Positions 26,452 through 64,000 are shown, counted from the stretch's first letter. The stretch is DNA of 64,000 nucleotides from Candidatus Deferrimicrobium sp. (GCA_035531115.1 DATKTP010000204.1:4155-68154), one strand, 5' to 3'. A program made the numbers and translations. The notes: generated by a model not told the origin, from the sequence alone.

Positions 26452-26830
26452 GATCTGGTATGAGTAGAGTAGGCCCTTTTCTGTTCTGGAATTTCAATTG
26501 CTTGAGATTCCTTGACGGTATCAATCTATGCGCCCTACCCGGTCCTCGGCTAGGCTCCTCATTGGACGCTATTTGGGCTTGCTCCCACGACCTTGAGCTG
26601 TTTCAACGATTCCATGCATCTCTTCGGCGGGTTAGCTCATCCAATATCGCTAAAGGACTTCTCGAATTGCTTCTCAGCCGCCTCATCATCATCTAATGCA
26701 TGGGCGTGTCATTTCTGATCTCAGAGAAAGACTCTCGCCTTGTGGCTATAGCCACGCCGTTGCCTAGGAGGGAGAAGGGACCTTCCTCAGACGACCTTCG
26801 TCCGGCAACCGTCCTTACTCTTACCAGATC
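26452..26830 (-). ncRNA. rnpB: RNase P RNA (archaeal type A-like)
   Basis: GC-enriched block. The minus strand reads '...GTCTGAGGAAGGTCCCTTCTCC...' (CR-I GAGGAAAGUCC-like) and '...CCAGAACAGAAAAGGGCCTAC...' (CR-V ACAGAA plus the P4 3' strand, with a bulged U as in bacterial P4). The termini pair as a long P1: 5' GATCTGGTAAGAGTAAGG (26830-26813) with CTCTACTCATACCAGATC (26469-26452). Confidence 0.85.
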
Positions 26831-54077: not shown

Positions 54078-54899
54078 TTAAGAGGGGTATTCAATTCGTT
54101 TCCGCCAGATATAGAAATATGATAAGACTCCCGAAAGAATTATGATGGCAAGAACTATATACATACGAAAATCACTTAATTCAAAGGGGATTAAGTTGAG
54201 GAAAGGAAGATCAATGCCATTTAAGCGAAAAAAATTATAGAATTGTTCATTCATAAAATCTTGAGTAATGAAATAAATGCCTAATATTAAAACAATATTG
54301 AATAGGATCCCCCAAAACTTCTTCAAACTCTGGTTTCTGATCCAATTGATATTATAGGAAATTAGAATAACGGATGCACAGAGAAAAAAACCCGCAAACC
54401 CGTGATGCATTCCTAGATGAACGGCAGGTAAATTATCTTCCCAGGGAATGGCTTGGTTGCTCATGAAGAAATTCAATCCTGGAATGTCCCCTACAAAGAC
54501 CCCAACTAACGCGAAGATCCATGGGAGCGAAACAAATATCAATATTATAATTGCAATCATTCTAAATTTATCCTTATAAAACGGCTTTGTCATTTTTTGA
54601 CTGAGGTTCAAGTCTCTTTGGTGCGTAAATTCTGATTCTTTAGCGGAACCGATTCTATGATCTATTAAAAGTATAATCGTCCAAAGGATGGGTATTAATC
54701 CGAAAGTACTGAAAAATTCTAAGCTCCAATGCAACCCTGCGTCTACTGAACCAATCGGTTCTCGTTCATACATCGCCCACGAATCATTTATTAACCAATA
54801 ACAGAAAAATGTTGCTAAAACTGTAAAAATCATTAGTGCCCACATTAAAATTAGGGCAGTTCTAAATCTTCGAGGTGAATACAGGTTTGACATGTTCAA
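54078..54899 (-). CDS. polytopic membrane protein, last gene of the AOR cluster
   Basis: 273 aa, ~7 TM helices. Its start overlaps the AOR stop by 4 nt. Confidence 0.6.
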   Translation of the reverse strand: MNMSNLYSPRRFRTALILMWALMIFTVLATFFCYWLINDSWAMYEREPIGSVDAGLHWSLEFFSTFGLIPILWTIILLIDHRIGSAKESEFTHQRDLNLSQKMTKPFYKDKFRMIAIIILIFVSLPWIFALVGVFVGDIPGLNFFMSNQAIPWEDNLPAVHLGMHHGFAGFFLCASVILISYNINWIRNQSLKKFWGILFNIVLILGIYFITQDFMNEQFYNFFRLNGIDLPFLNLIPFELSDFRMYIVLAIIILSGVLSYFYIWRKRIEYPS

Positions 54900-56818
54900 T
54901 CCAATCCATCTGAAAATTCTAATAATCCTAACTCTTCTAATTTCTTTTTTGAGGGTATTCCATACTTATTCCACCCGCGCTCTTCATAATAATCATCCAA
55001 TAAGCGCTCAACATCTGCTTCTGTAAGTTCCCGCTCTTGATGATAATCCATGAGTTTTTTAGGCCCATCTGGTGTTTCACGGGGCGTGAGCCAGATGCGC
55101 GAAATTTTATCCCGGGACTTGAATCCTTCACGAATATTCAAGAGTTTATATAGTGTGAAATTGCGTTCCCCATACTTCTTTAATTGTTGCGGGGTGAGTT
55201 GAATTCCAATACAAGCTGAATATAGTGCAGCAAGGCGCTCAATATGAATAATTTCAGTTCCAAAGAGGGTATATACGATGCACGTCCCCAAGCTATTATG
55301 AACTGCCATTGCATCTTCCGCATGCTTTGCATAGCGACCCGCGTTGAATTTTCCATAGGTGGGAGTAGGTGTGAAGGTCCGCTTGAATTCTTCAGAGGAA
55401 AGCCCGAGGTGGCTGGCATCATCCATCAACGTTTTCAGTGTCATTTTTGGAAGCGTATAGATGGATTGAGTTCCCCCGTGATGCGGTCTTGGATTAGTAA
55501 TATAGGTGAACCGTTGCGGGTCAATTGTGGTAGTCCGTCCATCCTGAATCGCATCTGCACCTTTAAACAGCCCAGTGCCCTCGAAAAAGGCATCTGGATC
55601 GAGTTCCAACTTTTTTGAGAGGGGATACCACCCATCTGCAAGAAATTTTCCCAGATTCTCTTTTGAAATTATTTGTTCGAATAAATTCATATATGCGGGA
55701 AATTCGCGCGGTAATATCTCGGGTGCACAACGGCTTATCCAATTTAACAAGCCTCCGATCGTAAAAAAACAGACCCCTGCTCTATTACATGCATCTAATA
55801 ACTTAATAATTTGAGGAGGATCTTGGATCCCGAGTCGGAGCGCCACACGTGCCGGGAGATAATGGTGTCCCGTGAACGTGGTTACGCCTTGATATGGACC
55901 ATCGGGGACATAATAATCAGTACGGCAAGCAATCATACACCCATTGCAAGCAAGATTATGTTTGAATTTATGTTTTTTCCAAGTTTTTGGACCAAAGTTT
56001 TTTTTCCAAGTTCGATAGGGTAAATTTCCCTCATAGACGAGGGGTGCTTGTAGATCCCACCCAGCAGTAATGCCCATATCTTGAAAATTTGCTAACATGG
56101 GGACATTTTTCACTGTAGTACGGAATTCACGCACCAATTTCAAGAATTCGGAAGGATGTGCAACTTGTATACCCTTGGTTCCGTACGTTACAATGGCTTT
56201 CAAGTTTTTAGATCCCATCACCGCTCCAAAGCCGAATTTCCCAAGATGCCCACTATAATCCACCAGTGCAAGTGCATACCGTACTAAGTTTTCCCCAGCT
56301 TTTCCAATTGCAATTACTCCATTAAGTGGATTTTCCTTGATAAAATAATCCGTAGTTTCGTAAATATCCAAATTTCGCCAGAATTTATCTGCAGAATTGA
56401 TTTGAACTTCCTCATCCGTGACTTGGAGAAAAACTGGGTGCTCAGCTTTACCCGTAATAATTAGATGATCATACCCTGCATTTTTAAGCATTGGACCAAA
56501 CCGTCGGCTTCCCGCAACCGCATTATCGATAAAATGGAGTCCCGCAGGCGAGGCAACAATGGGCGATTTGGTGGTCGCAATAACTTTTCCCGCCCCTGGA
56601 ATTAGGGTTCCAACAAGTGGACCGGTCCCCAAGATAATCGTATTTTCTGGTGCAAAAGGATCCACGTTTGGAGATTGATAATCCCAGAAAAGGCGGTTAT
56701 TTATTCCATAGCCTCCAACGAATTTTGAAATATAAGATTCGGGGAGTGGAAAGCTTCGTATTTTCTGGGAGCTTAAATCTACATGTAATATTTTTCCAGC
56801 GTAACCATAGTAATTCAA
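54896..56818 (-). CDS. aor: aldehyde:ferredoxin oxidoreductase family (tungstopterin enzyme)
   Basis: 640 aa. N-terminus 'YGYAGKILHVDLSSQKI' plus length and overall pattern are typical of AOR-family enzymes. Confidence 0.85.
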   Translation of the reverse strand: MNYYGYAGKILHVDLSSQKIRSFPLPESYISKFVGGYGINNRLFWDYQSPNVDPFAPENTIILGTGPLVGTLIPGAGKVIATTKSPIVASPAGLHFIDNAVAGSRRFGPMLKNAGYDHLIITGKAEHPVFLQVTDEEVQINSADKFWRNLDIYETTDYFIKENPLNGVIAIGKAGENLVRYALALVDYSGHLGKFGFGAVMGSKNLKAIVTYGTKGIQVAHPSEFLKLVREFRTTVKNVPMLANFQDMGITAGWDLQAPLVYEGNLPYRTWKKNFGPKTWKKHKFKHNLACNGCMIACRTDYYVPDGPYQGVTTFTGHHYLPARVALRLGIQDPPQIIKLLDACNRAGVCFFTIGGLLNWISRCAPEILPREFPAYMNLFEQIISKENLGKFLADGWYPLSKKLELDPDAFFEGTGLFKGADAIQDGRTTTIDPQRFTYITNPRPHHGGTQSIYTLPKMTLKTLMDDASHLGLSSEEFKRTFTPTPTYGKFNAGRYAKHAEDAMAVHNSLGTCIVYTLFGTEIIHIERLAALYSACIGIQLTPQQLKKYGERNFTLYKLLNIREGFKSRDKISRIWLTPRETPDGPKKLMDYHQERELTEADVERLLDDYYEERGWNKYGIPSKKKLEELGLLEFSDGLD

Positions 56819-57075
56819 ACATGATCCCCCGTATATTCCAATGCATCATAAGCGCATTCTTGAGTGCACAGCCAACAACTTGGTTTACAACTCTCCAAAA
56901 AGATAATTTCTGTAGAAATCCACGTTTTTTCGCTGAAATGTCCTGGAAAAATTTTTATATGTGCTTTTGACGGATTAAACGATTTGGAATGAATAAAAGA
57001 ACAAATCAACATACAACTCAAGCATTGAGCACAGTTTTCGGCATGAATTTTAATATTTTCCTTGATTGTTTGCAA
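56815..57075 (-). CDS. small ferredoxin-like 4Fe-4S protein
   Basis: 86 aa. 'CAQCLSCMLIC' and 'CKPSCWLCTQEC' cysteine clusters. 4-nt overlap with the AOR start. Confidence 0.65.
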   Translation of the reverse strand: MQTIKENIKIHAENCAQCLSCMLICSFIHSKSFNPSKAHIKIFPGHFSEKTWISTEIIFLESCKPSCWLCTQECAYDALEYTGDHV

Positions 57076-57098
57076 TCTATTAAGACATCCTCGTATTT

Positions 57099-57890
57099 CT
57101 ATTTTCGAAATATATTATATTTTCTGCAATAATTCTTAAAATGGGGAGTGCCTCCATCTTCAGCAATAATTTGTAAGACTTTTAAAGGATTTAATACCTG
57201 CATACCGCTCACCATCGTTACATTCCGATCAAAGAGCGAGTCAGGGATTATCCCTGCTGAAGGTCCAACCAATATGATTTCTCTCGCATTCATAATCCAA
57301 GACAATACAGTTTCAAGTGTATTATTAACTATCGTCGACCCGGTAATAAGAACAACATCTGCTTGATTCAAACAACTTTGAGAGGACTCAAGGGTATTAA
57401 AGGTTGGTGATTGAATATTTTTTAATCTATCATCAATAATAGTAATATTTTGAATTTGGCGCTGTAATTTTTGAAAAATTCCTCCAATATATCCAACCAT
57501 TACTACCTTATCTGGCGAGTTAAACTGAATATGCTCGATAGGGTCTCCATCAAAGAGAAGATTATATTGATCCATTTTATTCTTAATAATATGCTGCGAA
57601 ACCGCATTTAAGACTGAAATACCAAGAACTTTTTCGATATTAATCTCTTCATTACCTGCAAATTGAAGCACTTTTCCTATATCTAAATCCATAACACTAG
57701 AAGCTGTTTTTATGCATTCTACCGAATCAAGGGGCTCCTGATTAAAGACGGAAAAACACAGACCACACGATTCATCGTCAAGCATCGTACAAGTAAATCG
57801 AAATCCTTTACTCAGGGCCTTAATTCTTAAGGTATTCAGATCAATCTCCTCTAAAATCCGTGTTATTAAGTCCTCAATAAGTTTACCCAC
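57099..57890 (-). CDS. DUF4213/DUF364 protein (putative cofactor/metal-handling Rossmann-like protein)
   Basis: 263 aa. 'VVMVGYIGG...ADVVLITGSTIVNNTLETVL...IILVGPSAGIIPDSLFDRNVTMVSGMQV' matches the DUF364 pattern as I recall it. Confidence 0.7.
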   Translation of the reverse strand: MGKLIEDLITRILEEIDLNTLRIKALSKGFRFTCTMLDDESCGLCFSVFNQEPLDSVECIKTASSVMDLDIGKVLQFAGNEEINIEKVLGISVLNAVSQHIIKNKMDQYNLLFDGDPIEHIQFNSPDKVVMVGYIGGIFQKLQRQIQNITIIDDRLKNIQSPTFNTLESSQSCLNQADVVLITGSTIVNNTLETVLSWIMNAREIILVGPSAGIIPDSLFDRNVTMVSGMQVLNPLKVLQIIAEDGGTPHFKNYCRKYNIFRK

Positions 57891-58373
57891 GTCATTAACT
57901 CCATTTGATTAACATGAAAATCTCTTGATAATAAATAAGTAAGTTCAAAATTTTAATACTGATCTTAAAAAAAGAAGTTAGAATGTAATTGCTGTTGATG
58001 CTCTTTTCCAAGCAGCCCAAAGTCTATAAGCGAATCGTCGATAAGTTGAGTGATGATGCGTATTACTTTTCGCATCTGCTCTATTTCGATTACGGGAAAA
58101 ATCAGTGTCTGGTAGGAGAAACATTGCATCATCAAATTTTTCAGTTTGAATCAATGTCTTTTTTTGCCGTTTTACGCTTCTGACTTTGTTATGATTCCAT
58201 AAATTCCCCGAATGTCGCCTTTTTTTAATTCGCTTCTTTTTCCTTTTCGCGCACATAGTCAATATGGCATAATAAAAAGCACCAGAGTAAATAATGAACC
58301 ATTATATTTAAAATACTCCTCCTATCCCTTTGGATTCAAAAATGATTTTATAAAGCCCTAATTTCAAACGCTT

Positions 58374-59609
58374 TTATAGTAAATCGACGATCAATGTTGA
58401 CCAACCAAAATTTTTTGCTCCGTAGGGCTTCCCCGTTATTGGATTATATTGTTCGCGGAATCCTGATTTTTCAATCATTTCACACATCTTTATAATAATC
58501 TCTTTTGCTAAATCATTAAATCCTTGCTGTTGTAAGCCCTTAATACTATACCAATTTGTGCAAAACCATGTGGGACCACGCCAGAGTAACAGTGAAGACC
58601 CTTTCGGATTGAATTTTGGTGAAGATTTTGCTACAGATGGGATAGGAAAGGGAAGCCAAAATTCCTCCTCATTTAATAGATGCTCCTTCACTAAACGCTC
58701 TGCTTTTTCATTACCTATTTCTAATAATAATGGAAATAAGCCAGTAACTGATATTTCTGGTAAAATAACATCATCTAATGATCGAATCGAATAAAAGAAA
58801 CCAACTTTATCATCCCAACATTTGTTAATTAGAGCACTCTGTGCCTTTTCTGCTCGTAACAACAATATTTTTTTCTTTTCCTTCTGTCCTAGAATCGCAC
58901 AGAGATTTGCTAATACCTTTAAATTTATTATATAAATTACATTGAACGCCACGTCTTTTACGAAAAATAGATTCCTCTCCTTCATTTTTTCAATATTCCA
59001 AGCTACCTTATTGTATTCCTTAATTAAATTTCTCAGCCAGAACCCCGTTCGAATCGTAAAAAGCCTTCTAATTCCATGAATATGATCCCAGACCGGCAAT
59101 AAATCCATTCCACTCTCCCATGGGTGGATAATAGAAACCAATCCATCGCCTGTAATTTGTTCGTTTCGCTCATCATGAAGCCAATCATAATATTTTATAA
59201 GAGATGGAAGCATTGATTCAAGGAAGTTGGTGTCATTGGTGGTTTCATAGACTTTTAAAACGGCTTCTGCAAGTAACGGCGGTTGAGTGATATGAGTTCT
59301 ATCGTTTTCTGGAAATAACCTCTTAAAAAACCAATCTGTTAGTCTTGGGAATGCTCCTTTTGCTCTTTTCCAATATAATGTATGGGGTATCATACCGTTC
59401 TCGAATTGCTTTTTGATTAGTGTATGCAATTCTTTTTTAGCGTTTTCTGGATTGAAATATGACCAAATAATCGCATGAAAGCAGCTATCCCAAAGCCATT
59501 GATGTTGATATGTCCCTGTGCTTGGGCACGTATAGAAATACTCTTCATTCTGAACAATGTTTCCCTCCAATACTCGTTTCGCTTTTTCTTTAATCCTATT
59601 GATATCCAT
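58374..59609 (-). CDS. (alpha/alpha)6-barrel glycoside hydrolase, GH63-like (glucosidase I / mannosylglycerate hydrolase-like)
   Basis: 411 aa. 'YQHQWLWDSCFHAIIW', 'IIHPWESGMDLLPVWD', 'NFGWSTLIVDLL'. Confidence 0.75.
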   Translation of the reverse strand: MDINRIKEKAKRVLEGNIVQNEEYFYTCPSTGTYQHQWLWDSCFHAIIWSYFNPENAKKELHTLIKKQFENGMIPHTLYWKRAKGAFPRLTDWFFKRLFPENDRTHITQPPLLAEAVLKVYETTNDTNFLESMLPSLIKYYDWLHDERNEQITGDGLVSIIHPWESGMDLLPVWDHIHGIRRLFTIRTGFWLRNLIKEYNKVAWNIEKMKERNLFFVKDVAFNVIYIINLKVLANLCAILGQKEKKKILLLRAEKAQSALINKCWDDKVGFFYSIRSLDDVILPEISVTGLFPLLLEIGNEKAERLVKEHLLNEEEFWLPFPIPSVAKSSPKFNPKGSSLLLWRGPTWFCTNWYSIKGLQQQGFNDLAKEIIIKMCEMIEKSGFREQYNPITGKPYGAKNFGWSTLIVDLL

Positions 59610-59734
59610 GTTGTATTCAAATCCGTAATCTTTTAAGAGTATATTTAATTATAAAAAATATCAATGAAGTTATTAATAATTTTAAAACAATTTGAAAAGT
59701 GTTAAGAGTGCAATAAAGTAGTAGGGTTATAAGT

Positions 59735-60982
59735 ATGGAGAAGATTAATGAAATTCTTAATAATTTTGAAATAACTCTCAAACAAACCATTGAAATAACT
59801 CTTATAAAAAAATTAGAGAGTAATGTAACATCTTTAAAAACCTTAATTAATCAAATCTCTGAAAAAAAGCAAGCAATAGAGGCTACAATGAAAGGAAAAG
59901 AAAAAGGGTTTAATTTTGAGGAATATATTAATACTATCAGTCGAGAAATTAATGGAATAAATGATAAAATCCCCAACTTGATTGATTTAACTAAGAAGTT
60001 GGAGACCGACGCAGCTGTAAAGCAATTTTTGCTCCAGAAGTCCGATGAGATTTTTTCAAGAATATCTGATGAAGCCTCACGGGAGTTTAATTTATCCACG
60101 TTTAAAATTTACAGTGAAATTTTAGATAATTTGAAATTTGAAATGGAGAAAAATTTTCTGGAAGGGCTAGATAAAGAACTTTTTGGAATTAAAACAGAAT
60201 TAGGTGAATTCCAAAAGATCTATGAAGTTGCGAGTCCTCAATTTATGGCGATCCAGAAATCTCTAGAAGAGATGCAAAATAAATACCAGACTCAATATCA
60301 GAACCAAATAGAATTACTCAAGAGCGAAAGTGAAATTGTTGAGGGATCCTTTCCTCAAATAATGGTATTTACTAATAATTTAACTCAAGATTATGACGCA
60401 CTTCAAAAAGAAATTGGTAATAAACTGATAAATATCTATCAAACACCATTGCACCTTCTAAGCGATCTGCGAGTTGCCCTTCATTTCTATGAAAAAAATC
60501 TGACATCTCAACATACTAAATTACAGACCGACTTGGAATCCACCCATAAAAAAATAGAAAACATCTCTTTGGACTCGAAAGACTCGTTGAGAGTAGCTGA
60601 ACAACTGAAACAGGAAAACGCACAATTGAAAGCTGAAAATCTACGCATGAAATCTGATTTAGACCATGTATCAAAAGAACTGGATAAACTTTCTCAAGAT
60701 TTTGTGCACATGTCTAAAGCACAAGATAGAAAAGTTGAAATGCGAGAAGTATTAGCTTTAGTTATGACGTTGTTAGTTGAAGTATTTGGTGCTCAACCCC
60801 ATTCTAAGTTACTATACTTGTTACATGGTCAAAAAGTTGATATGAGTCGCGATGCATTAACAAAAGCATCTGGTATTGCTGGAGCGATCGTGCGGAAAGC
60901 TCTTGCAGATTTGGACGCTGCAAACCTTGTCGAATACGATGTTGTATCAGGAAATGTGAAATTATTAAAGCGAATCTATTAA
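59735..60982 (+). CDS. long coiled-coil protein with C-terminal winged helix
   Basis: 415 aa. Heptad-rich sequence through ~residue 330 (e.g. 'LKQENAQLKAENLRMKSDLDHVSKELDKLSQ'), then 'MSRDALTKASGIAGAIVRKALADLDAANLVEYD'. First gene of the Rag-like operon. Confidence 0.65.
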   Translation: MEKINEILNNFEITLKQTIEITLIKKLESNVTSLKTLINQISEKKQAIEATMKGKEKGFNFEEYINTISREINGINDKIPNLIDLTKKLETDAAVKQFLLQKSDEIFSRISDEASREFNLSTFKIYSEILDNLKFEMEKNFLEGLDKELFGIKTELGEFQKIYEVASPQFMAIQKSLEEMQNKYQTQYQNQIELLKSESEIVEGSFPQIMVFTNNLTQDYDALQKEIGNKLINIYQTPLHLLSDLRVALHFYEKNLTSQHTKLQTDLESTHKKIENISLDSKDSLRVAEQLKQENAQLKAENLRMKSDLDHVSKELDKLSQDFVHMSKAQDRKVEMREVLALVMTLLVEVFGAQPHSKLLYLLHGQKVDMSRDALTKASGIAGAIVRKALADLDAANLVEYDVVSGNVKLLKRIY

Positions 60983-61013
60983 GAATCTGTTTCTTCTGCT
61001 TTCTCAAAAAATA

Positions 61014-61964
61014 GTGGATTTCAAAAAAGGAAGAACATTCATGGTCGAATTAAAAGCAAAAGCGCCCTTCAAAATTATTTTTACGGGATTAGATGATAGC
61101 GGGAAGACATCCAGTCTTTATGTCTTGGAAGATAAATTCAGTTTATTGAATCCTCCTCCGACTATTGGAATAGAAAGAGAAACTTTTGAAGTTTTAGGAT
61201 TTCCAATTATACGCTGGGATTTAGGGGGCCAATCTAAATTCCGCCAATCATATTTGGAGCAAGAATATACTTTTGCAGATACAGATCTTCTCTTCTATAT
61301 AATTGATATACAAAATCGCTCACGTTTCGGAGAATCTATCGATTATTTTGAACATATTCTAACGATGTTCAAAAAAGTTGGTCAAAAACCCCCCATATTT
61401 TTATGTCTTCATAAATTTGATCCCGATTTAAAAACAGATGATCGTATTCTATCGAATGTAGAACTTGCTAAACAGATTTTTCGGCGGAAATCCTTCGGTT
61501 TTGAAGTTGAAATGTGTGAAACCACTATTTTTGAGAAGTGGTCGTTAACAGTCGCTTTTTCCAAAGCTTTATCGAAGCTTTCACCCAAATCTCACATCCT
61601 TGATCAACAACTTGAGGCTTTTGCAAATCAAATTCAGTCTGAAACTGTCCTCCTCCTGGATGAAAACGCGTTGCTTTTCGGACAATATTTCAAGAACTTA
61701 GAATGCTATGATATATGTAAAATAATTTCCCCGCATCTAGCGACTATGGCCGATAAAATAATCAAATATGGCACGAATTTTGAAATATTCCAAGTGAAAG
61801 TCAAAGAAAGAGGATGGGTTTTTTTCCGTGATTTACAAATAGCGAATAAGCAATATTATCTAATCATCCACAATAATCAAGTTAGCAGTATTAAACTAAT
61901 AGATGAAAATATTCCCCAATTTATCGCGAAAATCTCAAATGTAATTCAATCTTTTTTTACATAG
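61014..61964 (+). CDS. Rag/Gtr-like small GTPase with C-terminal roadblock-like domain (paralog 1)
   Basis: 316 aa. G1 'GLDDSGKTS', G3 'WDLGGQ', G4 'LHKFD' (HKxD as in RagA/Gtr1). 'TTIFEKWSLTVAFSKALSKLSPKSHILDQQLEAFANQIQSETVLLLDENALLF' parallels RagA '[51 protein letters not shown]' (from memory). Confidence 0.8.
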   Translation: MDFKKGRTFMVELKAKAPFKIIFTGLDDSGKTSSLYVLEDKFSLLNPPPTIGIERETFEVLGFPIIRWDLGGQSKFRQSYLEQEYTFADTDLLFYIIDIQNRSRFGESIDYFEHILTMFKKVGQKPPIFLCLHKFDPDLKTDDRILSNVELAKQIFRRKSFGFEVEMCETTIFEKWSLTVAFSKALSKLSPKSHILDQQLEAFANQIQSETVLLLDENALLFGQYFKNLECYDICKIISPHLATMADKIIKYGTNFEIFQVKVKERGWVFFRDLQIANKQYYLIIHNNQVSSIKLIDENIPQFIAKISNVIQSFFT

Positions 61965-61983
61965 CTACTAGGAGGTAAAATAT

Positions 61984-62898
61984 ATTTCAAATAAAACGCC
62001 AACATTCAAAATAGCATTTTGTGGGTTAGATAACAGCGGAAAAACAAGTATATTACTGGTTCTTGAACATAAATTTAGTCTATTAACAAACATTTCTCCA
62101 ACAAAAGGCGTTGATCGGCAAGAATTCGATGTCTTAGGGCATCCTATTATCAAATGGGATTTCGGTGGACAACAGCAATTTCGTGAAAACTATTTTAAAA
62201 CAAATCAGTTGGAATCTACCGATCTCATATTTTATGTAATAGATATGCAAGATTCAAAAAGATTCGCAGAATCCTTTCAATATTTTTCTGAAATCATTGA
62301 TTTTTTTAAGAAAATCAATCAAAAATTTCCCCATCTTGTCATTTGTCTTCATAAGGTAGATCCTGACCTTGTTAATAATCCTCAAATCCAAGCAAATATC
62401 CAAGAATGTGAAAAAACATTACAGGATCTTATTGATGTTAATTGTATTACTTTTCAGACCACCATTTATAACAATTGGAGCGTAAGGAAAGCCTTTTCAA
62501 AAGGTCTTTTGAAACTATCCCCTAAATCGACTCTACTTGATACTATCCTTGAAGATTTTCTTTCGATCACAAAGTCAGATACTGTTTTACTTTTGGATAC
62601 CGATGCTCTTGTTTTTAGTGAAATGACGCATGATCCTGAATCTTATCAAATATCTAACATTCTTTCACCCCATCTAGCTACTATGGCAGATAAATTATTA
62701 AAATATGGAAAAGAGATTGAAGTCTTTGAAGGGAAAATTGGAGGATGGATCTATTTTAAGCCTCTCTTTATCCGGCAAAAGACCTTCTATCTCGTTATTT
62801 TTAATAAAAAAAGCGATAGCTTTGAAGAAATAAATTTCGCGCTCCCCCAACTTACTGAGAAAATTGCGAATACACTTCAAACATTTTTTGTTGGTTAA
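61984..62898 (+). CDS. Rag/Gtr-like small GTPase with C-terminal roadblock-like domain (paralog 2); probable non-canonical ATT start
   Basis: The track ORF starts at 62209, but the same frame (open from 61972) encodes the P-loop 'FKIAFCGLDNSGKTS' and G3 'WDFGGQ' upstream. G4 is 'LHKVD'. No ATG/GTG/TTG lies between 61972 and 62208. ATT 61984 sits 7 nt after GGAGGT. Confidence 0.75.
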   Translation: MSNKTPTFKIAFCGLDNSGKTSILLVLEHKFSLLTNISPTKGVDRQEFDVLGHPIIKWDFGGQQQFRENYFKTNQLESTDLIFYVIDMQDSKRFAESFQYFSEIIDFFKKINQKFPHLVICLHKVDPDLVNNPQIQANIQECEKTLQDLIDVNCITFQTTIYNNWSVRKAFSKGLLKLSPKSTLLDTILEDFLSITKSDTVLLLDTDALVFSEMTHDPESYQISNILSPHLATMADKLLKYGKEIEVFEGKIGGWIYFKPLFIRQKTFYLVIFNKKSDSFEEINFALPQLTEKIANTLQTFFVG

Positions 62899-62938
62899 TT
62901 AACTTATACTATTTCCCTAATCCTATGAATATTCACTG

Positions 62939-63286
62939 GTGAGTAAAATGCCTAAAAATGAAGATAAAAAAGGAAAGGAACGGATATTACGCATTGCTTA
63001 TGAAGCTCTTGAGGAATGTAACACCCTGTATGAACGCACCGGTCGAAATAAAATACCCTTAGATGAAGTCGCTGGAAATTTAGCTATTAGTAAAGAAGAA
63101 ATCCAAAATAGTTTCGACCAGTTAGTGCAAGAAGGTGTTATTGGAGATGATGGCGATCGCGAACATATGAATTATGATGAAAGTGGCGCATTAATGGAAT
63201 TGATATTGCAACTTCTCACGAAACTTCTCAAAGAAAAAGAGGAATCTAAGGAAGAGAAGGAAGAAAATCTGATTCAATATACTTAA
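62939..63286 (+). CDS. small winged-helix-like protein with acidic/Lys-rich tail
   Basis: 115 aa (GTG start; ATG at 62948). 'LDEVAGNLAISKEEIQNSFDQLVQEGVI'. Last gene of the Rag-like operon. Confidence 0.5.
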   Translation: MSKMPKNEDKKGKERILRIAYEALEECNTLYERTGRNKIPLDEVAGNLAISKEEIQNSFDQLVQEGVIGDDGDREHMNYDESGALMELILQLLTKLLKEKEESKEEKEENLIQYT

Positions 63287-63491
63287 AGCCTTAGATATTC
63301 TCTCTATCATATATATAGACATAACAGGGTTGTTAGATAAATATTATTAAAGAAAAGAGGCTAATCGGGAGAAGGATAATAGCGTAATGAATTATACATA
63401 AAAATGATAATTCTGTATAAAAAACACAATCTAAATTAAAATTGCATACAAATTAAAACGCAATTTATCACTTCAAAAATAGTTTTTTTAT

Positions 63492-63563
63492 ATAAACTGA
63501 AATTTATTGGCATTTAAACCGCGTTAATAGGTTTAATGAAAATTTAAATAAACTGAAATTTAT
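63492..63563. repeat. two exact copies of ATAAACTGAAATTTAT, 56 nt apart
   Basis: 63492-63507 and 63548-63563 are identical 16-mers with palindromic ends (ATAAA...TTTAT). They lie in the ~480-nt AT-rich intergenic region upstream of the RHH gene. Confidence 0.5.
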
Positions 63564-63771
63564 GGAAAGAATTTCTAGTAATCTTTTTTTTTATTCTCCC
63601 TATATATGAATAGAAACTATGGATAATCAAGAAGTAGAAAATATGTTTTTTTACTCTATATTTTAAAAAAAGAAATCGACGAAAATATCAAGGGTATCTT
63701 TTAAAAAGGCAAAGTTATAGTGAATGTAAAATTATTCCTTATAGAAAATTAACAGGGGTGGATTTCATACA

Positions 63772-63981
63772 ATGAAAACCATATCCGTAAATGTCCCCGA
63801 AACTTTCGTCAAAGGGCTTGAAGATCTCGTACAAAAAGGTATGTATGCAAATAGAAGCGAGGCTATTCGAGTTGCCATCCGCGATCTTTTAAAACGCGAG
63901 TTATATGAAACCGAGGTTTCATATAATTCGGTTAGAGATAAAAACGAAAAATATGTTAAAGAAGAAATTGTCACAATTTAA
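63772..63981 (+). CDS. ribbon-helix-helix (CopG/Arc/MetJ-family) DNA-binding protein
   Basis: 69 aa. 'ISVNVPETFVKGLEDLVQKGMYANRSEAIRVAIRDLLKRE' is a textbook RHH. The antisense track ORF 63765-63974 is rejected. Confidence 0.8.
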   Translation: MKTISVNVPETFVKGLEDLVQKGMYANRSEAIRVAIRDLLKRELYETEVSYNSVRDKNEKYVKEEIVTI

Positions 63982-64000
63982 ATGATAGACGGTAAATTCT

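Follow-up and report, generated by a model that had tools for sequence, protein, structure and literature searches.

A conserved tandem pair of Rag/Gtr-family GTPases with a small acidic companion protein in Helarchaeota-type Asgard archaea

Does a pair of adjacent Rag-like GTPase genes in an archaeal chromosome encode a heterodimeric switch, and which of the neighbouring genes belong with it? Upstream of TORC1, Rag GTPases act as the switch that senses amino acids; that they work as obligate heterodimers is among the strangest traits of small GTPases in eukaryotes. To our knowledge, the homologs found in Asgard archaea are the only prokaryotic relatives of these proteins. The question is raised by a locus at positions 59735-63286 of a stretch of 64,000 nucleotides (GCA_035531115.1, DATKTP010000204.1:4155-68154; hereafter the window) that is labelled Candidatus Deferrimicrobium sp. 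and that we assign below to an Asgard archaeon. In agreement with an initial annotation of this DNA, the listing of open reading frames (ORFs) gives four ORFs there, all on the plus strand. They encode a 415-amino-acid coiled-coil protein, two GTPases, called A and B in the following, and a small acidic protein called S. We find that A and B are members of the Rag/Gtr GTPase family and that the conserved module is the trio A-B-S. The explanation that we consider probable as a whole is a Rag-type locus in which A and B would form a heterodimeric switch paired through roadblock domains, with S as a partner.

The family membership of the two GTPases was examined at the level of profiles, sequences and motifs. 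The genes of A (61041-61964) and B (61984-62898) are indeed paralogous, with 47% identity over 306 amino acids (E=3e-94). Both proteins matched the Pfam family Gtr1_RagA (PF04670, cutoff 22), with 85.3 bits (E=5.7e-24) for A and 81.7 bits (E=6.8e-23) for B, as compared to 61.8 and 63.3 bits, respectively, for the Arf family. The Gtr1_RagA match of A and B covered about 209 of the 232 model positions and reached past the G domain. In phmmer searches of the PDB sequences, both proteins matched 8yl2 and 8zla ('GTP-binding proteins') first, then RagA, and then Gtr1, Gtr2 and RagC. The E-values with 8yl2 and human RagA were 4e-45 and 7e-15 for A, and 6e-42 and 3e-15 for B; Gtr2/RagC matched B at about 5e-11. 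The Rag/Gtr affinity that had been proposed for both G domains is therefore upheld, since Gtr1_RagA outscores Arf by about 20 bits and the best matches among solved structures are of the Rag type.

The motifs on which that proposal was based are all present, namely the P-loops GLDDSGKTS in A and GLDNSGKTS in B, DLGGQ/DFGGQ, LHKFD/LHKVD and the shared SPHLATMADK..KYG segment. The G1 to G5 motifs are intact in the two proteins, including the catalytic glutamine of DxxGQ and the family-typical HKxD. Among 26 homologs, no variation is seen at H133, K134, D136 or G71-G72-Q73. The alignment of A with human RagA begins at the P-loop and stays colinear up to residue 280. GLDDSGKTS is set against GKSGSGKTS, WDLGGQ against WDCGGQ and LHKFD against VHKMD, and the post-G5 stretch of A, TTIFEKWSLTVAFSKALSKLSPK..., is paired likewise. 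The statement that the segment following G5 tracks RagA was thereby confirmed.

Next to its G domain, A carries a C-terminal domain (CTD) at 61590-61949 (residues 193-312 in the numbering of the 316-residue version of A). The AlphaFold2 (AF2) model of A, built from a 26-sequence alignment, had a predicted local distance difference test score (pLDDT) of 86 and a predicted template modelling score (pTM) of 0.82. In this model, the CTD consists of helices at residues 193-206, 229-251 and 292-312 and of strands at 211-216, 221-226, 258-263, 267-276 and 279-287. The resulting order, alpha-beta-beta-alpha-beta-beta-beta-alpha, is the roadblock topology. The model was compared to the PDB with Foldseek, where template modelling (TM) scores are given as query-normalised/target-normalised values and about 300 columns were aligned for the Rag/Gtr chains. 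The TM scores were 0.79/0.86 for 8yl2, 0.75-0.79 for RagA in 6s6a, 0.72-0.82 for Gtr1 and 0.6-0.8 for RagC and Gtr2. Arf/Arl chains covered the first ~170 residues only, with query-normalised TM scores of 0.40-0.47. As modelled, the CTD of A is a roadblock fold. The CTD of B (62527-62880) would be a roadblock as well, given the 47% full-length identity to A; the pairwise alignment is gap-poor throughout this domain, including the SPHLATMADK helix. The Robl_LC7 hidden Markov model (HMM; Pfam PF03259) gave no match at E<=1 in the CTD of either protein, and the fold is visible through structure only. Of the roadblock domains described in the initial annotation, the structural side is thus borne out for A, whereas the profile search proposed as a check was negative.

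These results bear on another reading, in which A and B lack any specific affinity to Rag proteins and are small GTPases of the ordinary Arf or MglA type that have acquired an unrelated extension at the C-terminus. Public annotations do read 'ADP-ribosylation factor-like protein', a match to the Arf Pfam model is obtained as well, at 62-63 bits, and the silent Robl_LC7 HMM goes in the same direction. However, the Arf profile comes second, about 20 bits below a Gtr1_RagA match of 209/232 positions that continues past the G domain. Full-length structural matches were obtained with Rag/Gtr chains only, Arf/Arl proteins corresponding to the ~170-residue G domain. In addition, the G4 motif is an invariant HKxD and A and B have ~125 extra C-terminal residues, whereas an Arf protein is a stand-alone G domain of ~180 residues with NKxD and an amphipathic helix at the N-terminus. 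No MglA/MglB-type profile matched any protein of the locus, and there is no separate roadblock gene at the locus. The generic Arf/MglA reading is already refuted by the Pfam and Foldseek results, and we give it practically no credit.

In order to delimit the module, loci were retrieved through homologs and compared by tblastn. A is directly followed by B in all seven independent lineages (the window, L004/5/6, L012, L013, L028, L029 and L030). S directly follows B in six out of six lineages in which the contig is long enough (the window, L004/5, L013, L028, L029 and L030). In L029 and L030, whose upstream flank is rearranged, the three genes have likewise stayed together. The conserved module is therefore A-B-S.

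The behaviour of the 415-residue protein (59735-60982) is different. The initial annotation had presented the four genes as one unit that would fall if their order were not kept in relatives. This is the case, because the window and its closest relative, L009, are the only loci in which the 415-residue gene adjoins A, placed between A and a glycoside hydrolase family 63 (GH63) gene. The 415-residue gene is missing from the syntenic locus in five other lineages (L004/5, L012, L028, L029 and L030): the GH63 gene is directly followed by A in L004/5, L028 and L030, and L029 has a different upstream set. The family yielded 19 matches, all from Helarchaeota/Promethearchaeota. Elsewhere (L007 5026-11055; L010 2567-7206), its members stand beside N6/N4 DNA methyltransferases, GH31, a HicA toxin, a PLD-like protein and an alpha/beta hydrolase, which suggests that the family is tied to variable regions or mobile elements. 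In two metagenome-assembled genomes (MAGs), the homolog has a locus tag distant from the tags of A and S (HWN66_14940 versus 17705; ACFFD2_04550 versus 09250).

The 415-residue protein itself gave weak coiled-coil-type matches and sub-threshold matches to TFIIE_alpha and GntR at its C-terminus, where the last ~80 residues form a conserved, basic (isoelectric point (pI) 9.1), putatively winged-helix-like domain. Its family profile matched generic coiled-coils only among PDB sequences (JIP3, apolipoproteins). Comparison with the S family by hhalign showed no relationship between the two putative winged-helix domains (probability 0.2%). We have weighed the possibility that all four genes nevertheless act as one module, with the Rag-like heterodimer coupled to the 415-residue protein as a DNA-binding or scaffold effector. 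The common strand, a gap of only 31-58 nucleotides without an obvious TATA box between the 415-residue gene and A, the basic C-terminal domain and the recurrence of the arrangement in L009 (where A is 83% and the 415-residue protein 68% identical to those of the window) speak for it. Against it stand the five lineages that have not kept the gene at the locus, the distant locus tags within single genomes and the company that its homologs keep elsewhere. We regard this coupling, which the initial annotation had put forward as a possibility, as quite improbable. The 415-residue gene is a recent lineage-specific neighbour outside the conserved module, though it may be co-transcribed with it.

The start of gene B raised a separate problem. 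No ATG, GTG or TTG is found in the B frame between the TAG at 61969-61971 and the F at 62005, with which strand beta-1 begins. The first canonical start, TTG 62209, comes after G1, switch I and G3, and standard ORF calling accordingly gives a 229-residue ORF from this position. Public gene calls are 217 residues long here and 270, 283 and 289 in relatives, all of them without the P-loop. Therefore, gene callers truncate B and drop its P-loop because no canonical start precedes it. The description of B as a protein of ~305 residues beginning 19 nucleotides after A holds only if translation begins at ATT 61984, which gives 304 residues in a frame open from the stop at 61969-61971; it has no canonical start to support it. 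Direct reading of the DNA shows a Shine-Dalgarno (SD) site, AGGAGGT, at 61970-61976, 5 nucleotides past the stop of A and 7 nucleotides ahead of this in-frame ATT. A similar layout, GGAGG followed by 7-8 nucleotides and an in-frame codon, is found in L012 (Hel_GB_A) with ATT and in L004 and L028 with ATC. Overall, B lacks ATG, GTG or TTG ahead of the P-loop in four of the seven lineages (window 61969-62209, L004 8890-8950, L012 6929-6965, L028 6926-6956). The orthologs of the remaining lineages have ATG, GTG or TTG in this short stretch of codons ahead of the P-loop.

We also compared the ratio of nonsynonymous to synonymous differences (pN/pS) along B in six ortholog comparisons, in which synonymous sites were saturated. 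It was 0.14-0.23 in the first 68 codons as compared to 0.23-0.28 elsewhere in the gene. The 68 codons upstream of 62209 are thus translated, and purifying selection on them is no weaker than on the remainder of the gene. The late canonical start and the short public gene calls could alternatively mean that B is a truncated or decaying copy of 217-229 residues without P-loop, serving only as a roadblock-bearing regulatory subunit, or a pseudogene. This is very hard to reconcile with an open upstream stretch in which G1, switch I and G3 are intact and pN/pS is low, with a perfect AGGAGGT 7 nucleotides ahead of ATT and the same SD plus ATT/ATC layout in three further lineages, and with orthologs that have ATG, GTG or TTG just upstream of the P-loop. 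We hold a truncated B to be highly improbable. A full-length B would begin by SD-driven initiation at AUU or AUC, most likely at ATT 61984 in the window. The stop of A lies 5 nucleotides before, or overlaps, the GGAGG of B, and this juxtaposition also occurs in L012, L013 and L028; translation of B is probably coupled to termination of A.

The third member of the module, S (62948-63286), is a 112-residue acidic protein with a pI of 4.6 (4.3 for its winged-helix core). In its AF2 model (pLDDT 78.5), two long helices, one at each terminus, flank a core of strand, helix, helix and strand; this order, H-E-H-H-E-H, is compatible with a winged helix. The best Foldseek matches were SarA, Sso10a-2 and MarR, with E-values of 0.04-0.1 and TM scores of ~0.44. 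HMM matches to Lrs14/Sta1 were sub-threshold, and an Lrs14-like match in a profile search of PDB sequences was non-significant. From the model, a winged-helix-like fold is plausible for S. The winged-helix assignment made initially for both proteins flanking the GTPases is therefore weakly supported, through E>=0.04 for S and a sub-threshold TFIIE_alpha match for the C-terminus of the 415-residue protein. The wing loop of S, GDDGDR(D/E)HMNY, is invariant. Because of this loop and of the acidity of the core, S would bind protein rather than DNA. The family is narrow. It has 23 close homologs, several of them on contigs equal in length to those that carry A orthologs, and a search of 1.84 billion representative proteins gave only 16 matches at E<=1e-3; its phyletic range is as restricted as that of A and B.

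A wider rare family was also seen (P0113-P0120; L031, L032), with proteins of 88-196 residues that share the S motif CN.IH..TG...I.L..VA...G...TK..IQ..F.L.....IGDDGD.D.MNY. It has no Pfam match, and on the short contigs seen no GTPase genes adjoin its members, including the distant P0113 and P0116. Defence and phage readings of S and of the 415-residue protein were discarded, PADLOC and PHROGs giving noise only (LmuB on a coiled-coil stretch, E=1.5e-4; PDC-M21A, 1.7e-3).

How could the three proteins work together? In the scheme that we propose, A and B would be made from one transcript. B would be translationally coupled to A, the stop of A abutting a perfect SD site and B starting at a weak AUU. 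The two GTPases would then pair via their roadblock domains, giving a Gtr1/Gtr2-like heterodimeric nucleotide switch, and S would be a probable dedicated partner of A:B, as a regulator, adaptor or effector. Several observations favour heterodimerisation through the roadblock domains. A and B co-occur strictly, the stop of A is juxtaposed to the SD site of B, and the two proteins form two well-separated orthogroups. At sixteen positions, the 12 A sequences and the 7 B sequences are fixed for different residues; 13 of these positions are in the roadblock CTD and 3 in the G domain. The diagnostic residues are enriched in the CTD (Fisher p=0.002), even though the G domain has more of the conserved positions. 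The central roadblock helix SPHLATMADK is near-invariant in both paralogs. Finally, published AF2 modelling of an operonic Rag-like pair of strain MK-D1, which yielded a heterodimer of the Gtr1/Gtr2 kind (PMC10933270), points the same way.

Alternatively, A and B could each be homo-oligomeric or monomeric and act independently, the tandem reflecting nothing but a recent duplication. The two proteins are still 47% identical, and Tran et al. also model homodimers for other Rag-like proteins of strain MK-D1 (PMC10933270). The closest solved relative, 8yl2, bears the PDB title 'Homo Tetrameric RagA-like small GTPase from Asgard Lokiarchaeota (LokiRagO)', and 8zla (LokiRagM) is annotated as a monomer; heterodimerisation is therefore not a necessity among Rag-like proteins of Asgard archaea. 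However, the duplication is old, with two orthogroups across seven lineages and neither copy lost or separated, the stop of A abuts the SD site of B, and the paralog-specific substitutions are concentrated in the roadblock domain. We consider independent A and B unlikely, yet deserving of attention.

Besides the oligomeric states of 8yl2 and 8zla, further points weigh against the heterodimeric switch with S as partner. The evidence for A:B pairing is circumstantial, and the roadblock of B is read off its alignment to A. The AUU/AUC start is deduced from sequence only, and a weak start fits a 1:1 stoichiometry poorly. The winged-helix assignment of S is statistically weak. The A-B-S order is weaker functional evidence than usual because the whole neighbourhood of ~15 kb is syntenic in the genomes compared, from aldehyde:ferredoxin oxidoreductase, DUF364 and GH63 on one side to genes for a ribbon-helix-helix (RHH) protein, TFIIE-alpha, a Ras-like GTPase, CDP-alcohol phosphatidyltransferase, HD, CGI-121, THUMP and GcvH on the other.

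The heterodimeric switch can be extended to a more specific, three-component archaeal Rag switch. Here the heterodimer would have arisen from a duplication independent of that in eukaryotes, a dimeric acidic winged-helix S would take the place of a roadblock or longin protein as dedicated regulator or adaptor, and the level of B would be set by SD-driven AUU/AUC initiation. The action of S might then depend on its invariant DDGDR wing loop, which could serve as an arginine finger or a switch-binding element, for instance. We offer this extended version as a tentative proposal that is rather doubtful in its entirety. If it were true, A:B:S would represent a class of Rag partner unknown in eukaryotes and a minimal Rag system open to reconstitution. 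More generally, a conserved, translationally linked pair with a tiny partner makes a compact three-protein system for asking how and why Rag heterodimers arose, and it could show what Rag-type GTPases do in a cell without lysosomes or TOR.

We then compared the locus to known systems. A and B share with the eukaryotic RagA/B-RagC/D and Gtr1-Gtr2 pairs the PF04670 family, the HKxD and DxxGQ motifs and the colinear link between G domain and roadblock, with TM scores of 0.72-0.83 when superposed over the full length, whereas identity is only ~20% and the N- and C-terminal extensions of RagC/D are absent. The pattern of one subunit orthologous to RagA and the other to RagC was not found, both A and B scoring higher to RagA than to RagC/Gtr2. 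Because both resemble RagA more, and each other far more than any eukaryotic Rag, the simplest reading is that they duplicated independently of the event that separated RagA from RagC. None of the Rag partners Ragulator/EGO, GATOR1, FLCN-FNIP and TOR is linked to A-B, where the linked partner is instead the small winged-helix-like protein. The archaeal host has no lysosome. As in bacterial MglA-MglB, a small GTPase is combined with roadblock domains; however, the MglA/B roadblock is a separate homodimeric GTPase-activating protein, whereas it is fused to each GTPase in A and B. The initial remark that the partner set resembles neither Ragulator nor MglB stands, there being no Ragulator-, MglB- or longin-type partner at the locus. 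Roadblock, longin, DENN and TOR-related genes were found neither at the locus nor within the 8-kb flanks of the loci with gene calls.

Among Asgard archaea, Rag-family GTPases are reported to be abundant, with many of them fused to roadblock or longin domains (10.1101/2020.10.19.343400; PMC12290439). Longin-GTPase-roadblock fusions of ~487-500 residues (P0035-P0057) have G and roadblock regions homologous to those of A and B, with 31-36% identity. Other Asgard Rag-like modules use a fused or adjacent longin domain, whereas A-B-S has none and uses two GTPase paralogs and S. Two Lokiarchaeota Rag-like GTPases, 8yl2 (LokiRagO) and 8zla/9m28 (LokiRagM), have crystal structures that became public in 2025-2026. 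Like A and B, they have an Arf-like G domain with HKxD and a C-terminal roadblock, the identity to 8yl2 being only ~32%. In MK-D1, one pair of Rag-like GTPase genes is operonic, with two adjacent genes as in A-B, and AF2 predicts a roadblock-joined heterodimer like Gtr1/Gtr2 (Tran et al. 2024, PMC10933270). That paper mentions neither a conserved acidic winged-helix-like third gene nor a non-AUG start of the second gene. The MK-D1 locus retrieved here (L027) has a single Rag-like gene beside TFIIB, and our homolog searches found the A/B orthogroups only in Helarchaeota-type genomes.

Rag-like modules and tandem pairs recur with different partners. At L026 (5989-7489), in a genome other than Hel_GB_A, a 318-residue Rag-like gene precedes that of a 161-residue longin-like protein. 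Hel_GB_A, which carries A-B, has a second, different Rag-like tandem pair (L024 5007-6960, SUPS01000089.1) of 317 and 313 residues with a 58-nucleotide gap. The central idea of an Asgard Rag-like pair, with a predicted heterodimer and crystal structures, is thus already public, and the novelty initially attached to the locus was overstated. As far as we could find, the Helarchaeota A/B orthogroup pair, its constant acidic companion S and the non-AUG start of B seem to be unpublished.

The origin of the DNA had to be reconsidered. A 109.5-kb metagenomic contig (ENA ERZ27256847, k141_2578251) contains a part identical to the window, with 0 mismatches over 10,960 nucleotides. NCBI records the proteins of this contig under a bacterial genus, as 'Candidatus Deferrimicrobium sp.'. 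However, an archaeal RNase P RNA lies within the window (26458-26824), and all close homologs come from Helarchaeota/Promethearchaeota MAGs. Therefore, the contig belongs to a Helarchaeota-type Asgard archaeon, in whose core chromosome the locus lies, and the Deferrimicrobium label is a binning or taxonomy error. Existing annotation labels A and B 'Arf-like', truncates B without its P-loop and assigns the contig to a bacterial genus. As a consequence, surveys of Asgard GTPases built on such records will miss or misclassify the A-B-S module.

The starts of the other genes of the module were also revised. The longest ORF of A, from GTG 61014, encodes 316 residues, and an exact-sequence look-up of this version found no match. 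The public gene call (P0001) has 307 residues and begins at 61041, where the orthologs begin likewise, and AGGAAG lies 7 nucleotides upstream of ATG 61041. This ATG is more probably the start of A than GTG 61014. Similarly, S more probably starts at ATG 62948 than at GTG 62939 (115 residues), because this GTG falls inside the GGTGA SD site that lies 5 nucleotides ahead of the ATG. With these starts, the gaps given initially as 31, 19 and 40 nucleotides become 58, 19 and 49, the value of 19 being kept only with the ATT 61984 start.

A run of seven T lies at 61952-61958, in the last codons of A (SFF), just before its stop. It may be an oligo-T signal of the archaeal type for termination or attenuation before B, and it is shorter or broken in relatives. 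A scan of 59000-64000 against Rfam gave a lone sub-threshold match resembling a small nucleolar RNA, inside gene A, which was judged to be due to chance.

Upstream of the module, a block on the minus strand (54896-59609) encodes the aldehyde:ferredoxin oxidoreductase (640 residues), a DUF364/DUF4213 protein (263 residues) and the GH63/MGH1-like glycoside hydrolase (411 residues), whose gene is divergent from the module. This block is syntenic in most relatives. A promoter for A could not be located by aligning the intergenic region upstream of the module, conservation being confined to the vicinity of the divergent GH63 gene. Beyond the 3' end of the window, on the opposite strand, are a TFIIE-alpha gene and a gene for a 175-residue Ras/Rab-like GTPase (Pfam Ras, E=1e-49; L001 10995-12241, corresponding to window positions ~64035-65281). 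This pair is also kept in L004, L028 and L030. In L029, a different Ras-like paralog stands directly upstream of A. The idea of a conserved third GTPase at the locus was dropped, the Ras-like GTPases of L001 and L029 being only 38% identical.

Between S and the RHH gene (63772-63981), an AT-rich spacer of 485 nucleotides extends from 63287 to 63771. It gave no Rfam match. It contains a 21-nucleotide direct repeat (63487-63507 and 63543-63563, spacing 56), for which a reading as C/D-box small RNA was rejected since the CTGA boxes are not kept in relatives. Blocks of the spacer, such as GTGTTTTTTTACTCTAT and CTTTTAAAAAG..TATAGTGAAAGTAA, are kept across lineages whose proteins are only ~65% identical. 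The spacer may hold promoter or operator elements of the RHH gene, or a small RNA.

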